From positions 32,001-96,000 of the IMG/VR virus record IMGVR_UViG_3300025584_000449: a stretch of DNA of 64,000 nt. One strand, given 5' to 3'. The notes under the pieces were generated by a model. The model ran no database searches. It saw nothing but the letters and a program-made list of their open reading frames with translations, and was not told the DNA's origin. Made by a program: the position numbers and the translations under genes. Source of the DNA: a virus. Positions 2 through 18,982 of this stretch are shown piece by piece (positions within the stretch are counted from its first letter, which is position 1; every line of letters begins with the position of its first letter).

Positions 2-3000
2 ACTGATGGAGCTAAAGGAGATAAGTTTGAAAAACCTATATTTGTAGGCCATCAATACTTTATGAAACTTCGTCACATTGTTAAGAAGAAAGCTGGAGAA
101 CATTCATTTGGTAATTATGATATTAATGAAACTCCTGTAGGAAAAGGTGCTCAAAAATTAGACCCTATGCTTTCTCATAGTTTACTAGCTCATGGAGCAA
201 AAGCTAATCTATATGAAATGAGTGCGTATAAGGGAAGAGCAAATGAAGAGTACTGGACTAACTTATCTCTAGGATTGCCCGCACCACCTCCATCAGATAA
301 TTTTGTATTTAATAAAATGATTAACTATATGAAGTCTGCTGGAGTTAATGTAAAAAAAGAGGGAAACAAGTTTAGAATATTTCCATTAACTGATACGCAA
401 GTTAAGGAATGGTCAACAGGTGAATTAAAAGATCCTGGCGCATTACTTGTTGGTAAAAATCTTGCAGAGCGTAAAGGTGGATTATTTGACAGAGAGATGA
501 CGGGTGGTTTACGGGGCGAGAAATGGTCTCACATAAAACTCATTAAAAAAATACCTAATCCTATGTATGAGTTAGCAATAACCAAGTTACTTGGGCTGAC
601 TGAGAATAAGTTTAATAAGATTCTAGATGGCTCTTTAGAGTTAGACGGAAAAACAGGCGTAGAAGCAATTCATGCGGCATTAAAAGGTATTGATGTTAAA
701 AAAGAGCTAAAGAAAACTAAAGCTGAATTAAAAGATGCCTCCGATAGTGCAGTTAATGGTTTAAATAAAAAAGCTAGATATTTAAAAGCTTTAAAAGATT
801 TAGACTATACTGCAGATGAGGCATACATGACTCAGTATTTGCCTGTACTACCTCCCATCTTTAGACCAGTGTATCCATTACCTAGCGGAGATCTGATGAA
901 GTCAGACCTCAATGAACACTATAGAGACATAGGAGTTATTAATAATAATTATAAAGCTATTAAAGATAAGCTAGGCAAAGAAGAACAGCTAGAGTACGAT
1001 CAATCTATTTATAAAGCTGTAAAAGCTTATCAAGGATTTATTGATCCTATATCTTTCTCTGGAAAGAAATATAAGGGAGTTATTAAAGAACTATCCGGCA
1101 CACAGGTTAAGCATGGATTAATCCATAGCTCTACGTGGTCGAAGAGGCAGGACTTGTCTGCGAGATCAACTATTACTGTTGAGCCTGATTTAGGTATTGA
1201 TGAAGTAGGTCTCCCGGAAACAATGGCTAAAGAAATATTTAAACCATTTATGATTCAAAAATTAGTTAGTCAAGGTATACCATCATTTAAAGCTAACGCA
1301 GAAGTGCAAGACTTTACTCCTACAGCTAGGCAAGCGCTAGTAGCAGTTATGGAAGAACGCCCGGTTCTTCTTAACAGAGCCCCTAGTCTTCATAAGCACG
1401 GTATACAGGCCTTTCGTCCCTTATTAATTAAGGGTAAGGCTATGCAATTAAACCCAATTATATTTTCTGGGTTTAACGCTGACCTTGATGGTGACACTAT
1501 GGCTGTTCATACACCTATAAGCCAAGAAGCTGTTACAGAGGCGTACGGATTACTGCCAAGCAAGATTATATTTAAACATGGTGATAATGGAGTAGTACCA
1601 GAAATTTCTCAAGAATATATTGTTGGTATGTATTTCTTAAGTAAATTAGGAAAAAATACCAAGAAGGAGTTTAGTTCAATAACAGAGGCTAAAGCAGCTA
1701 AACTACATCCTACTGACGTCTTCTTATTAAATGGTCAGAAAATGACTATAGGTCAGTTCGAGATTAATAAAGTATTACCTAAAGAATTAAAAGATTATTC
1801 TCGAGAGATGGATAAAAAAGCAATTAATAAAATATTTACAATTATAGGTAAGAAGTATAAAGCAGACTTCGCAAAGGTAGCAACAAGATTTAAAGAGTTA
1901 GGAAATCAGTATAGTCATAAACGTAGCTTCACTATTTCTATAACAGATTTTGCACAAGATAAATCTTATAGAGATAAAATTGTTAAAGAAGAAATGCCTA
2001 AAATTAAAAAACTAAAAGGTGATAAGCGTTCAGCAGCTATTCTAGCAATGACTGATAAAATTGAAAAAGCACAAGACAAAGTGTCAATAGGTAAAAATAA
2101 TATCTATGATATGTTAGATGCTGGTAGTATTTCTGGTGGTAAACGTGGCAGTGTTAGACAAATTTTATCTATGCCTGGGCTGTTAGCTAATGTAAAAGGT
2201 GTTCCTTTAAAAAATCCTGTATTAAAATCATATGGAGAGGGCATAGATACTAGTGCTTATTGGAACCATCTGTATGCTGTACGAAAAGGAACTGTTGACA
2301 GATCAGTTAATACGGCAGATTCTGGAGCATTAGACAAGGCTTTAATAGGAGTAACTAGAAGATTACTTATTACTACTGAGGATTGTAAAACAAATAAAGG
2401 TATCTATGTTGATGTAAATTCTAATGATATTTTAGATAGACACTTAGCTAGCTCTATAAAAGGCGTTGCTAAAAAGAATGATCTAGTTGATTCTGCGTTG
2501 CTACTTAAATTAAAATCTGCTGGATTAAAGAAAATAGAGGTAAGAAGCGCCCTTACTTGTGATGCTGCCAGTGGCGTATGTCAGCTATGCTATGGGTTAT
2601 TGCCTAATGGCCAACTTCCTAAAATTGGTGAGAATGTAGGCGTGTTGGAGTCCCAAGCCATTACTGAGAGAAGTACTCAGCTAACTATGAGAACTTTCCA
2701 CACTGGAGGAGCTGTAACCGCTGGAGGTGGTGGTGTCACAGAAGGATTCCCAAGGCTAGTTCAGTTATTAGAGGTGCCAAAGAAATTAAAGGGTAAGGCT
2801 ACGCTAAGTTCTGTAAAAGGAACTGTTAAAGCTATAACAAAAAACTTAGTTGGTGGGTATGACATTAGAATAGAAGGATACGGTACTGAAAATGATAAAA
2901 CGTTTACTATACCTTCTACAAGAAAGATAGTAGTTAAACTTGGAGATAGAGTTACTCCAGGAGATAGATTAACTGATGGAGCTATAAAACCTCAAGAGCT

Positions 3001-3433
3001 TGGAGACTACAAAGGGCACCTTGCTGCACAGCAGTATATAGTCGATGAGATAGATAAGATCTATGGCGGTGATTTCCATAAGAAAGGCATAGAGGTAGTA
3101 TTAAGAGGAGTGTCGGATAATGCTGAAATTATTAAAGCACCAGATAATAGTGGGTATTTAAGGGGAGATAAAGCTAGTATTTCATCTTTAGACGCATTAA
3201 ATAAAGATAGACGTAAAGAAGGCCTTGACACAATTAAGTATAAACCTTATTTTAAATCAATTGAGACTCTTAATGTAGATAGTGAAGACTGGTTAACACG
3301 ATTCTATACTAATAGAATTAAGTCAGCTATCCAAGAAGGAGCATCAAAAGCAGTGTATGGGGATATCGCAGGAAAAGATCCGATACCAGCATACGCTTAT
3401 GGTGACGAGTTTGGTAAGGGAGACTTTTACTAG
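2..3433 (+). CDS. rpoBC: Phage multisubunit RNA polymerase, RpoB C-terminus fused in frame to RpoC (5'-truncated by window edge)
   Basis: Frame is open from nt 2 (TDGAKGDKFEKPIFVGHQYFMKLRH..., matching RpoB [25 protein letters not shown]) and runs without a stop into RpoC motifs: LLNRAPSLH, FNADLDGD, QLTMRTFHTGG, C-x6-C-x2-C second Zn site. Confidence 0.93.
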   Translation, partial: TDGAKGDKFEKPIFVGHQYFMKLRHIVKKKAGEHSFGNYDINETPVGKGAQKLDPMLSHSLLAHGAKANLYEMSAYKGRANEEYWTNLSLGLPAPPPSDNFVFNKMINYMKSAGVNVKKEGNKFRIFPLTDTQVKEWSTGELKDPGALLVGKNLAERKGGLFDREMTGGLRGEKWSHIKLIKKIPNPMYELAITKLLGLTENKFNKILDGSLELDGKTGVEAIHAALKGIDVKKELKKTKAELKDASDSAVNGLNKKARYLKALKDLDYTADEAYMTQYLPVLPPIFRPVYPLPSGDLMKSDLNEHYRDIGVINNNYKAIKDKLGKEEQLEYDQSIYKAVKAYQGFIDPISFSGKKYKGVIKELSGTQVKHGLIHSSTWSKRQDLSARSTITVEPDLGIDEVGLPETMAKEIFKPFMIQKLVSQGIPSFKANAEVQDFTPTARQALVAVMEERPVLLNRAPSLHKHGIQAFRPLLIKGKAMQLNPIIFSGFNADLDGDTMAVHTPISQEAVTEAYGLLPSKIIFKHGDNGVVPEISQEYIVGMYFLSKLGKNTKKEFSSITEAKAAKLHPTDVFLLNGQKMTIGQFEINKVLPKELKDYSREMDKKAINKIFTIIGKKYKADFAKVATRFKELGNQYSHKRSFTISITDFAQDKSYRDKIVKEEMPKIKKLKGDKRSAAILAMTDKIEKAQDKVSIGKNNIYDMLDAGSISGGKRGSVRQILSMPGLLANVKGVPLKNPVLKSYGEGIDTSAYWNHLYAVRKGTVDRSVNTADSGALDKALIGVTRRLLITTEDCKTNKGIYVDVNSNDILDRHLASSIKGVAKKNDLVDSALLLKLKSAGLKKIEVRSALTCDAASGVCQLCYGLLPNGQLPKIGENVGVLESQAITERSTQLTMRTFHTGGAVTAGGGGVTEGFPRLVQLLEVPKKLKGKATLSSVKGTVKAITKNLVGGYDIRIEGYGTENDKTFTIPSTRKIVVKLGDRVTPGDRLTDGAIKPQELGDYKGHLAAQQYIVDEIDKIYGGDFHKKGIEVVLRGVSDNAEIIKAPDNSGYLRGDKASISSLDALNKDRRKEGLDTIKYKPYFKSIETLNVDSEDWLTRFYTNRIKSAIQEGASKAVYGDIAGKDPIPAYAYGDEFGKGDFY

Positions 3434-3435
3434 AA

Positions 3436-3792
3436 ATGCCTTATTTTAAAGATACATCTACTAATAGAATATTATATAATAAGAATCAATATAATATAGA
3501 ATATATGGATGGATTGATTGATTTAGTTGATGACTTTTGTGAGTGTTATTTAATAGTGAGTGGGGCTGTTACTGAAGAAGGAGTTTTACAGGAGCTATAT
3601 GAAGACAACCAAGATATACTAAATAATAATACTTATATTATGGAGATAGAATTTTATAATGAGGACGGAGTAGTTATAGAAGAATTTAAACCTGTAGCTA
3701 CCGATGTTCCAGCTGGGTTTCAACTAGTTAGTGAAACGGAATCACCAGTATACACATACAAATCTCCAAAGAAAAAATATACAGAATTTTAA
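3436..3792 (+). CDS. Hypothetical acidic protein
   Basis: ORF starts 2 nt after the RNAP stop and is followed by a terminator. Confidence 0.75.
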   Translation: MPYFKDTSTNRILYNKNQYNIEYMDGLIDLVDDFCECYLIVSGAVTEEGVLQELYEDNQDILNNNTYIMEIEFYNEDGVVIEEFKPVATDVPAGFQLVSETESPVYTYKSPKKKYTEF

Positions 3793-5413: not shown

Positions 5414-5740
5414 TTACTTATTAAACCTATTTACTCTTTTCTGAGCTTCCTTCTCAGATTTAGTCGCTTGATCTAACATCTCTTTTGCATGCTCTCCTTG
5501 CTCCTTAGAGGATTTTACTCCCTCATCTGCATACGCCATTGATTCATCAAGCAACCTATCTGATTCTTTAATGCAATCCGCTGGTTCTATGTTATCGCCA
5601 TAAATCTTTTTACTAGACTTACGACGAAACCATGGCCACCAAGGAGTGCCCTGAACCTGTGGAACTAGTGTATTAAATACTAATACCACAAATATAGCCA
5701 ATATAAATAATGGCTGTGCAATCACCCATAAATGGATCAT
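5414..5740 (-). CDS. Small membrane protein upstream of the SPFH gene
   Basis: N-terminal hydrophobic helix plus charged coiled coil. Confidence 0.7.
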   Translation of the reverse strand: MIHLWVIAQPLFILAIFVVLVFNTLVPQVQGTPWWPWFRRKSSKKIYGDNIEPADCIKESDRLLDESMAYADEGVKSSKEQGEHAKEMLDQATKSEKEAQKRVNRFNK

Positions 5741-5821
5741 TTTTGTTTACCTTTCTTTTTATCTTGCTTTTCTGTCTTAGACTTAGTAGATTATGTTATT
5801 AAACATAAGACAAAGGAAATT

Positions 5822-6187
5822 ATGAAATATTGTATAATATGTGAAACTCAGTTAATAGGAAGACAAAGGAAATTTTGTTCAACCAAATGTAAGAATAGAT
5901 CTACAAACTACAAACATCAAAATTATAAAACTCAACAAACTAGAGGAAGATCTAGAAAGTTAGAACTTATAAAAATGAAAGGAAATAAATGTGAAGTTTG
6001 TGGATACTCTAAAAACTATGCAGCTTTATGTTTTCATCATAAGAATCCAAAAAAGAAAGAATTTCAATTAGATTTAAGACATTGTAGTAATACTTCTTGG
6101 AAAGAGTTAATTAATGAAGCCTCTAAGTGCAGACTTCTTTGCAGCAATTGCCATTCAGAAACTCATAATCCTGAATGTAGTTTATAG
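5822..6187 (+). CDS. HNH endonuclease on the strand opposite the tRNA cluster
   Basis: KCEVCGY...LCFHH...CRLLCSNCHSETH. Likely start MKYCIIC at 5822. Paralog of 25626..26045. Confidence 0.85.
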   Translation: MKYCIICETQLIGRQRKFCSTKCKNRSTNYKHQNYKTQQTRGRSRKLELIKMKGNKCEVCGYSKNYAALCFHHKNPKKKEFQLDLRHCSNTSWKELINEASKCRLLCSNCHSETHNPECSL

Positions 6188-10710: not shown

Positions 10711-11129
10711 CACTTAATGGTGTGGCACAAATTAATTCTTCTCGTTAGCGAAACGTTAACGTTCTTTACATTTGTAAAGATTAGACTGTAATCAGTACTT
10801 CAACTCAGGACCTACTTGTCGTTATAAACTATAGCGTCCTATAGTTCTTTCGCGCAAAGCATATATCCCGCGAATTCGTACTTGTCGAAGACAACTAGAA
10901 AAAGTTCTTACCTGGGGTACTTTTTTAAGTTTTATATGACGAAGTCTTCATAAAATTAAAAGGTGCCCTTGGTTGGAACTTTCTTCGTTACGTGTTTCTT
11001 CGAAGAAGTTAAAATACAACACTAACGGATCGTTAGTGTCTTCTATAAATTAATATAAAATTATGACTACGAATTCTAAATCATAGCTCGGCTACGATTT
11101 TATTTGCTATATTCTTATACCGTAATAAT

Positions 11130-18184: not shown

Positions 18185-18982
18185 TTAAACCCCACTTTTT
18201 ACTCTTCTGTTCTTTAGCATTTTGTCCCTGATCTTCATACCCTTAATAATGTTAGCTACGTTTTTTGTAATCACTTGACCATTGCCTTTATTAATCATAA
18301 AGTCAATTTTAGCATTCCCAATATCCTCATCTAACAGTTCGCTTACTAGCTTTCTGTTAGACAATGAATACCTGAGCCAACTTCTTATTCTTACTATCTG
18401 ACCTCTAACCGTATCCTCTGTGGTCTCGGCTATTTTTGCTACTTCAGCGCTGGTGTGTTTTTCATGTCCGTCAAGGCCATAAAGAAGACAAACTAAATCT
18501 TTTTCCCACGGCTCAAGCCAAAGAGTTAACATTTTATTTATTAGCTCTTGTTCTTCTTTAGTCTCGTATTGTATGTCTGAAGTATTACCTACAATAACAC
18601 TCGAATACTCTAAGAAATCATGTTTGTTCACAAAATTTTTCTGCAAAGCTTCAATAGAGAAAGTTCCAATAGGAAGTTGCTTTTTAATTCTAAATGTGTT
18701 AATGATAAAATGTTTAATTTTAACAGCACACCTAACATCAAAAGTAACTTCTTCTTCAGAAGAACCTTTCCACGTGTCAATTGCTTTTAATACTCCCAGT
18801 CTTCCTATTTGCTTAAGATCGTCTATATCGTGTGTTGGTATACAACGGTTAGGTTTGAGATACCTATCATATCTCTTAGCAAAATAGATAATGGCAGGTG
18901 TGGCTATTTTTAATATTTCTTCAATAGCTTTCTTATCTTTATTTTGAGCTTTAAAAATTATAGAGTCTTGAACATTTTCCAC
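18185..18982 (-). CDS. Sigma70-family RNA polymerase sigma factor
   Basis: Region 2 DDLKQIGRLGVLKAIDTW; region 4 LYGLDGHEKHTSAEVAK. Confidence 0.85.
   Translation of the reverse strand: MENVQDSIIFKAQNKDKKAIEEILKIATPAIIYFAKRYDRYLKPNRCIPTHDIDDLKQIGRLGVLKAIDTWKGSSEEEVTFDVRCAVKIKHFIINTFRIKKQLPIGTFSIEALQKNFVNKHDFLEYSSVIVGNTSDIQYETKEEQELINKMLTLWLEPWEKDLVCLLYGLDGHEKHTSAEVAKIAETTEDTVRGQIVRIRSWLRYSLSNRKLVSELLDEDIGNAKIDFMINKGNGQVITKNVANIIKGMKIRDKMLKNRRVKSGV

Follow-up and report, generated by a model that had tools for sequence, protein, structure and literature searches.

Bacterial RNA polymerase (RNAP) is thought to need the alpha dimer for its assembly and a conserved Zn finger at its RNA exit channel. 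Could a phage possess an enzyme of the same type that works without either of them? This question is raised by a gene that runs into the left-hand end of the viral DNA analyzed here (the window), a stretch of 64,000 nucleotides (nt) corresponding to bases 32001-96000 of IMG/VR record IMGVR_UViG_3300025584_000449 (179,902 bp, estimated to be 89% complete), and that encodes the RNAP subunits beta and beta' as one chain. Coordinates labeled G000:C1 refer to the full record, and the fetched upstream DNA carries the label L002 (L002:9362 is G000:C1:29362); unlabeled coordinates are those of the window.

A complete beta-beta' chain of bacterial type

The initial annotation described an open reading frame (ORF) that is open from nt 2 of the window and in which ~115 residues of the RpoB C-terminus are fused directly to RpoC. 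The frame is indeed open from nt 2 to the TAA stop at 3431-3433 on the plus strand (the 1123-aa ORF from 62 that had also been listed arises because the window cuts the gene), and the part in the window (2..3433) corresponds to residues 881-2023, i.e. the C-terminal 1,143 of 2,023 codons. Extension of the contig placed the start of the ORF 2,639 nt upstream of the window part and gave a full ORF at G000:C1:29362-35433 (window -2638 to 3433), which has no internal TGA and encodes a single chain of 2,023 amino acids (aa) and ~226 kDa. The fusion is real, but its beta part is not a remnant of ~115 aa: the beta module (residues 1-998) is complete at 998 aa and is followed by a complete beta' module (residues 999-2023). 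The fused beta-beta' ORF is therefore confirmed to be real and complete.

In profile searches with hidden Markov models (HMMs), models of both subunits matched the chain, the NCBIfam rpoB model with an E-value of 4e-112 and the rpoC model with an E-value of 2e-154. Pfam placed Rpb2 domains 3 and 6 within residues 344-920 and Rpb1 domains 1, 2, 3 and 5 within residues 1108-1902; Rpb2_6, Rpb2_3, Rpb1_2 and Rpb1_5 were above their cut-offs (scores above cut-off included 221 bits for PF00562, 104.7 for PF00623 and 90.9 for PF04998), and the E-value for Rpb2_6 was 1.1e-5 on the window fragment and 3.1e-65 on the whole protein (residues 617-920). The best NCBIfam E-values belonged to models of fused beta/beta' chains (the Helicobacter type, NF007172, and the Wolbachia type, NF011417). 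Equivalog cut-offs were missed both for these fused RpoBC models (534 bits vs 5,372 and 502 vs 4,632) and for rpoB and rpoC (TIGR02386, 516 bits vs 963.5; NF001616, 376 vs 896). Chance similarity can be discounted, because solved bacterial beta' chains were matched with E-values down to 7e-111. The RNAP chain is a homologue of bacterial rpoB/rpoC, not an equivalog.

We aligned the phage protein, seven relatives and the proteins of two isolated phages, Arash (Salmonella) and D69 (Vibrio), with rpoB/rpoC references from Salmonella and S. aureus, which were taken from bacterial contigs inside the phage collection. Identity to the Salmonella enzyme was 27% over the whole protein. The end of the beta module (residues 881-998; 2..355, on the plus strand like all features of the gene given below) aligned to the last conserved residues of Salmonella and S. 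aureus RpoB. The beta/beta' junction (302..394), located by this alignment and by the search for the junction in the family, has no linker: the last conserved residues of beta lead into residue ~14 of beta', the first ~13 residues of bacterial beta' being absent.

The absence and replacement of the four-Cys Zn finger near the N-terminus of beta', which had been proposed from the window, was borne out by a gap of 32 residues in the alignment (Salmonella beta' 68-99, including C70, C72, C85 and C88). At this site (476..541) the phage chain reads GGLFDREMTGGLRGEKWSHIKL and contains no Cys. The replacement follows the pattern T-GG-x2-G-x2-W, and was the same in 68 of 68 aligned relatives as well as in Arash and D69. 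The other segments missing relative to Salmonella, i.e. beta 229-345 (SI1), 938-1041 (SI2) and 1125-1178 and beta' 946-1131 (SI3), are lineage-specific inserts. In bacterial enzymes the Zn finger is part of the RNA exit channel, and its loss would probably alter pausing, termination and sensitivity to host factors.

The catalytic Mg-binding motif, NADLDGD (residues 1372-1378; 1475..1495), keeps the three catalytic Asp. The bridge helix (2276..2362) had been called diverged; it does differ from that of Salmonella, but its identity of ~41%, counted manually on the alignment, exceeds the average of the whole protein. The second Zn site (2372..2596), made up of the Cys of TTEDCKT and three Cys of LTCDAASGVCQLCYG, and the trigger loop (TQLTMRTFHTGG; 2660..2716), which lacks the SI3 insert, are both intact, as had been proposed, and the four Cys columns of the Zn site were invariant in 52 aligned sequences. 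In bacteria, the beta' clamp helices are the main docking site for region 2 of sigma, and the beta flap-tip helix is the docking site for region 4. The alignment indicates that the phage chain keeps the flap-tip helix and also the clamp helices, a coiled coil at 905..1039 that aligns with Salmonella beta' ~264-310. The rifampicin pocket carries the substitutions Q513A, F514T, D516P, H526D and S531T (E. coli numbering); read against established resistance mutations, these lead us to predict that the phage enzyme is not inhibited by rifampicin.

AlphaFold (AF2) models built from 52-sequence alignments matched the folds of solved bacterial beta and beta'. The beta' module had a predicted local distance difference test score (pLDDT) of 85.9 and a predicted template modeling score (pTM) of 0.80, and residues 1-1100 had a pLDDT of 83.5. 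Template modeling (TM) scores were 0.83-0.84 for beta' against solved beta' chains of S. aureus, C. difficile and B. subtilis (including 8x6f_D and 7l7b_D), and ~0.70-0.74 for beta against bacterial beta, with 0.74 (target-length-normalised) to a cyanobacterial beta. In these models a short loop (pLDDT ~63) takes the place of the Zn finger, and the clamp helices appear as two long helices (183-204 and 207-225).

A phage family that shares the design

A word-indexed search found more than 100 clusters (90% identity) of proteins that are 2,005-2,046 aa long and 37-69% identical to the phage chain at 100% coverage. An exhaustive search with a 241-aa fragment spanning the junction and the Zn-finger site returned 459 cluster representatives (50% identity) at E<=1e-30. 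Among the 150 best junction matches, 148 were one continuous stretch, nearly all of which cross the junction, and neither a stop nor a frameshift at the junction was found in hundreds of relatives. The Zn-finger-less signature was present in 200 of 254 retrieved relatives, the remainder being mostly fragments. In 209 of the 254 the catalytic motif was recognizable, and all 209 keep the three Asp; 91 have NADFDGD, nine have NADLDGD, and the 35 variants other than NADFDGD are all of the form D-x-D-G-D. NADLDGD in place of NADFDGD, which the initial annotation had singled out, is therefore present in the phage chain but is not special, as the non-Asp positions vary freely in the family. Similarly, a streamlined fused enzyme does occur together with sigma genes in the same phage (see below), but instead of being unusual its design is the rule in a large family. 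The genomes of this family are large (about 110-230 kb). The nearest records in the phage collection are Salmonella phage Arash and Vibrio phages D69, D148 and D181, at 29-31% identity (for the Vibrio phages, over 97-98% of the query). The single-chain, Zn-finger-less design is thus conserved across a large phage family.

The RNAP gene is viral, not cellular. The record carries genes for a large terminase (TerL), a prohead-protease-like protein, a tail sheath and a baseplate wedge, and the RNAP gene is flanked by a divergent MoxR ATPase/VWA pair and by an HNH endonuclease. We built a quick maximum-likelihood tree of concatenated beta and beta' (24 phage rows and ten bacterial rpoB-rpoC pairs, half of them Cloacimonadota or Cloacimonadota-like; no mixture model; unrooted). 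A branch with a Shimodaira-Hasegawa-like approximate likelihood ratio test (SH-aLRT) support of 100 separated the 24 phage rows from the 10 bacteria, and the query was sister to P0003 (69% identity). In this comparison with cellular enzymes, small as it is with its ten bacteria, the phage branch stands apart; the gene was not placed within a host clade with cellular flanks, but lies outside the clade of the sampled bacteria and has phage flanks. Relatives in GTDB lie on contigs of 113-204 kb assigned to bins of unrelated taxa, which range from Saccharibacteria to Aenigmatarchaeota. These contigs are probably mis-binned phage genomes, and as such could mislead phylogenies that use rpoB/rpoC as marker genes. 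The polymerase was seen on contigs L024, L026, L028, L029, L061, L065, L076, L090 and L093 from metagenome-assembled genomes (MAGs) labeled Saccharibacteria, Dependentiae, Bacteroidales, Leptolyngbyaceae, Thermoguttaceae, Gemmatimonadaceae, Lentisphaera, Pacearchaeota and Aenigmatarchaeota.

The length of the chain and the coding of its gene vary within the family. Seventy-six relatives (including P0006, P0009 and P0019-P0037) are 2,250-3,700 aa long through inserts annotated as inteins or homing endonucleases (PF14528, PF14890, PF05204). These inserts are concentrated at four hot spots, equivalent to residues ~395, ~790, ~1380 and ~1780; they fall in the fork region and the GNKG motif of beta, directly behind the catalytic DxDGD, and in the trigger loop. 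The RNAP genes of the closest IMG/VR relatives (57-59% identity) end in TAA and contain in-frame TGA, at codon 738 in L011 and L013, codon 794 in L020 and codons 45, 180 and 1438 in L022 (L011, L013, L020 and L022 being contigs 3300024261_000050, 3300025592_000008, 3300038361_000164 and 3300035698_022190). Four of these codons are alignable, two at columns that are all Trp in the aligned relatives and two at columns that are partly Trp; the L020 codon lies inside an insert. From this alignment the TGA-bearing relatives apparently read TGA as Trp. No tRNA-Trp(UCA) was found in the window.

Upstream of the RNAP gene, and transcribed away from it, a gene for a MoxR-type AAA+ ATPase (PF20030, E 2e-51) lies next to a VWA-domain gene (G000:C1:25238-27988, L002:5238-7988; minus strand). 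The position of the MoxR gene is kept in L011, L012, L013, L018, L020 and L022, and a role for the ATPase in polymerase or particle assembly is possible. On the other side, the HNH endonuclease gene (5732-6187, plus strand; PHROG 2255, E 5e-22) lies between the RNAP region and the tRNA array, which comprises 21 tRNA genes on the minus strand (3971-26663), the first of them (tRNA-Arg) 540 nt downstream of the RNAP gene. A 118-aa ORF that begins 3 nt past the RNAP stop (3436-3792) was considered as a small subunit; it had no Pfam or PHROG match, its sole match in the relatives was weak and lay over 1 kb away, and the idea was dropped.

Sigma-like genes, promoter-like motifs and the proposed mode of action

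A sigma factor had been attributed to the same phage, and we found three sigma-like genes. The first, outside the window on the minus strand (G000:C1:118996-119811, L005:1012-1827), encodes a sigma70-like factor of 271 aa with regions 1.2, 2, 3 and 4. Its nearest matches are phage relatives at 63-67%, followed by compact primary sigmas of Bacteroidota; it is 49% identical over its full length to Prevotella SigA (RpoD/SigA), and these similarities hint at a host or a sigma donor from the Bacteroidota group. The second, a divergent gene of 265 aa in the window (18185..18982, minus strand), matched PHROG 351 'RNA polymerase sigma factor' (E 1e-12), while its scores for Sigma70_r2 (17.8-19.6 bits) and Sigma70_r4 (14.4 bits) were both below cut-off. 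The third, of 243 aa, lies outside the window on the plus strand (G000:C1:155114-155845, L097:19114-19845) and matched Sigma70 region 3 (27.6 bits vs a cut-off of 25.3); it is found in a plus-strand block of late genes together with baseplate genes, ~2.6 kb upstream of the baseplate-wedge gene. With a sigma70-family factor and, in the alignment, both docking sites present, the phage has the traits of a sigma-dependent holoenzyme. Neither alpha (PF01000, PF01193) nor omega (PF01192) had a match in this record. The absence of alpha is not due to the missing 11% of the record, because three relatives that are 99-100% complete, each with sigma, also had no match to alpha (PF01000); omega was sought in this phage only.

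Enrichment of k-mers in upstream regions gave two classes of promoter-like motif. Class A (tT.ttttGGTATAAGAAnaATa; 10-mer GGTATAAGAA) has no -35 element. The 10-mer has 25 copies in the genome, 21 of them in the window, vs 0-1 in a reversed-pattern control. The copies in the window lie on the minus strand at 11112..11121 and from 18160, 25008, 26519, 27529, 30752, 31338, 32051, 33235, 41742, 48765, 49144, 49593, 49991, 53537, 54881, 55280, 55684 and 56382, and on the plus strand from 44876 and 47453. Most class A copies lie between genes and point in the direction of the gene that follows, often after a hairpin and a T-run; they sit before small accessory genes, and none is found in the virion modules. 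Exact copies of GGTATAAGAA also occur in three relatives (9, 18 and 20 copies) whose polymerases are 45-59% identical and some of which read TGA as Trp, whereas the Arash-like genome G004, unlike this phage, has none. Because class A is conserved across such distant phages it appears to be read by phage-encoded machinery, which would make GGTATAAGAA the best candidate for a promoter read only by that machinery.

Class B (TTGAC[ACT]-N16-18-TATATT) has 18 hits in the genome vs 2.85 expected, and all 18 are intergenic and correctly oriented. In the window it occurs on the plus strand at 56397..56425 and from 45287, 47995, 50001 and 50793, and on the minus strand from 8123, 21402, 26080 and 31060. 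Outside the window, one site (G000:C1:29279-29307) lies 83 nt before the ATG of the RNAP gene and is kept at the same place in L011, L012 and L020, less clearly in L022; others are found ahead of the sigma70-like operon, the gene that follows the terminase, the one that precedes the sheath gene, and the head-cargo operon. This common promoter class groups the RNAP gene with the virion genes. PHROG scans of the plus-strand genes behind class B sites in the window gave no annotation, so the temporal class of class B genes rests on the virion modules outside the window. We also considered region 4.2 of the sigma factor (LTRERIRQI) as proof that TTGACA is read, and rejected it because Prevotella SigA has nearly the same segment.

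The best explanation of these findings, which we consider probable, is a sigma-dependent, alpha-independent, single-chain phage core polymerase. The covalent link would bring beta and beta' together, a task that falls to the alpha dimer in bacteria, and the core would assemble without alpha or omega. The phage sigma factors would then bind the core and direct it to phage promoters, and the enzyme and sigma would be packed into the virion, where they would be available to start the next infection. Packaging is the tentative part of this scheme, for and against which the arguments seem to us about equally strong. It is suggested by the virion-gene promoter class of the RNAP gene together with the particle proteome of Arash, in whose purified particles gp206 gave 3,516 spectra (the most-detected protein), gp216 gave 1,210 and the sigma factor gp10 gave 467 (PMC10585845).

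Several points weigh against this explanation. The phage is known from sequence alone. Alpha and omega were sought with Pfam models, so that a divergent substitute or the use of host alpha is possible, and TTGACA-N17-TATATT resembles an ordinary sigma70 promoter that the host enzyme could read. The tree contains just ten bacteria and came from a quick search without a mixture model, with the root not placed. As to packaging, no N-terminal targeting peptide is evident in the RNAP chain, the RNAP gene is not beside the portal gene here, unlike in Arash and D69, and the particle proteome of Arash comprises 116 proteins including ribonucleotide reductases, its authors noting the carry-over of abundant proteins (PMC10585845).

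A more far-reaching proposal is that the system is independent of the host, i.e. that a chain free of alpha, omega and Zn finger, carried with sigma in the head, runs the whole program by means of three sigmas and two phage-specific promoter classes. We regard this as doubtful. If true, no other sigma-dependent multisubunit polymerase would have been shown before to assemble and work without alpha, and no natural core of the bacterial type would be smaller.

Could the phage manage without packaging? In a T7-like program, host RNAP would read class B to produce an early phage enzyme, and this enzyme with a phage sigma would then take charge of all further phage transcription from GGTATAAGAA sites. 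The near-consensus sigma70-type promoter 83 nt upstream of the RNAP gene, kept in relatives, agrees with such a program, as does the location of the RNAP gene outside the structural operons here, and the Arash proteome may hold carry-over proteins. However, class B is also found within virion modules (by TerL, before the sheath and at the cargo operon), which would be odd for expression by the host at time zero, and the distribution of GGTATAAGAA, which mainly precedes small accessory genes and does not occur in the virion modules, suggests an early and not a late class. Furthermore, TTGACA/TATATT would not be the consensus of the host if the host is of the Bacteroidota type, as the closest cellular relatives of the sigma suggest. 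A T7-like program is thus conceivable but unlikely.

We also considered a hybrid enzyme, whose fused chain would depend on the alpha dimer of the host, and perhaps on omega, for folding or for its response to activators. Such a chain would stand in for the large subunits of the host enzyme and would not be a core that suffices by itself. The chain is of the bacterial type over its whole length, and bacterial beta-beta' fusions (NF007172, NF011417) occur in cells that keep alpha, those with the Helicobacter and Wolbachia types included. On the other hand, relatives with 37-69% identity come from very different environments and bins, some of them with TGA read as Trp, and since their hosts should differ widely a conserved fit to host alpha would be harder to maintain. 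The enzymes of jumbo phages, moreover, show that assembly without alpha is possible (PMC7598289), and we judge a lasting need for host alpha to be rather improbable. Finally, an artefact or a cellular gene (an assembly error at the junction, a pseudogene, or bacterial rpoBC on a contig placed in the wrong bin) can practically be dismissed, for although the junction is known from assemblies alone, without reads, and some relatives lie in MAG bins named after bacteria or archaea, the same in-frame junction recurs in hundreds of independent assemblies, the flanks are phage-like in a record with TerL, sheath and baseplate genes, the bin labels are scattered and mutually inconsistent with several contigs being phage-sized (113-204 kb), and the tree sets the family apart from bacteria.

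The single-chain core polymerase that we favor matters because it is a close relative of bacterial RNAP, present in hundreds of phages, without alpha or the Zn finger and yet with the docking sites for sigma. It opens the questions of what alpha, omega and the Zn finger contribute and of how the phage escapes the host polymerase. As a minimal system, a single chain of ~226 kDa with a matching sigma would lend itself well to structural and single-molecule studies, and the isolates Arash and D69 make these questions directly testable.

Comparison with known polymerases

In Arash and Vibrio phages D69, D148 and D181, beta is fused at the same linker-free junction and the Zn finger is missing likewise, but beta' is cut in two: beta and the N-terminal half of beta' form one protein (1,525-1,527 aa), and the C-terminal half is separate (~606 aa). 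In the tree, whose phage part is unrooted, these split forms are placed among the fully fused ones; probably, therefore, beta and beta' were already joined in the common ancestor and beta' was split later. The genomes of Arash and the Vibrio phages are 180-187 kb, like that of this phage, and the Arash record, as here, has no detectable alpha (PF01000), with two matches to sigma region 2. The RNAP gene of Arash follows the portal gene, and the gene order of D69, which is unannotated, is similar. The records of these phages annotate the RNAP genes only as 'subunit beta' or as hypothetical.

Weinheimer & Aylward (2020) described a lineage, mReC (multisubunit-RNAP-encoding Caudovirales), from 97 phage contigs whose beta and beta' form branches separate from those of cells (PMC7481178). 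These are uncultured tailed phages, some larger than 200 kb, whose beta/beta' are detectable by cellular HMMs, a description that this phage fits (PMC7481178). Its record is a tailed-phage contig, beta and beta' are each at least 800 aa long, the motif is of the form NADxDGD and the chain branches apart from cells. A search for a Gp23-type capsid (PF07068, the mReC capsid type) gave no hit in the 89% of the genome that the record is estimated to cover; this is weak evidence against membership, because a capsid gene was detected in 8 of the 97 mReC contigs (PMC7481178). Judged by the published description, membership in mReC is thus likely. The NADxDGD filter of the published survey would miss family members with NLDYDGD, NMDFDGD or similar motifs, and the survey therefore undercounts the family. 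The mReC paper treats beta and beta' as two markers, mentions fusion just for crAss-like phages, and is silent on the Zn finger, alpha and sigma (PMC7481178). Our search of the literature found no description of fusion, Zn-finger loss or alpha absence in this family. The lineage with its beta/beta' genes was therefore published in 2020, and isolates exist, but the fused architecture appears to be undescribed.

The cellular fusions of Helicobacter and Wolbachia resemble the phage enzyme in being one chain, beta then beta', but are ~2,840-2,890 aa long, the phage chain being ~850 aa shorter. The phage chain stands apart from the ten sampled bacteria, in a tree that included no fusion of the Helicobacter or Wolbachia type, and we infer that the phage fusion arose independently of these. 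The RNAPs of the crAss-like/YonO type are single polypeptides with both double-psi barrels, as here, but they have no detectable similarity to the cellular beta/beta' models (PMC7481178), which the phage chain matches with E-values of 4e-112 to 2e-154.

The RNAPs of the phiKZ/AR9 type function in the absence of alpha and omega; infection begins with the form carried in the virion, and a sigma homologue is lacking (PMC7598289). They consist of at least four polypeptides, are highly diverged and have no recognizable sigma, whereas this phage has one chain, close to bacterial enzymes, together with sigma70-family genes. We considered a second RNAP set, as in phiKZ, and rejected it when tblastn showed one RNAP locus, a search that very distant enzymes would escape. 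The jumbo phages that do carry sigma genes lack a polymerase of their own (PMC7598289). Unlike the jumbo phages of that review, this phage has both a polymerase and sigma factors of its own.

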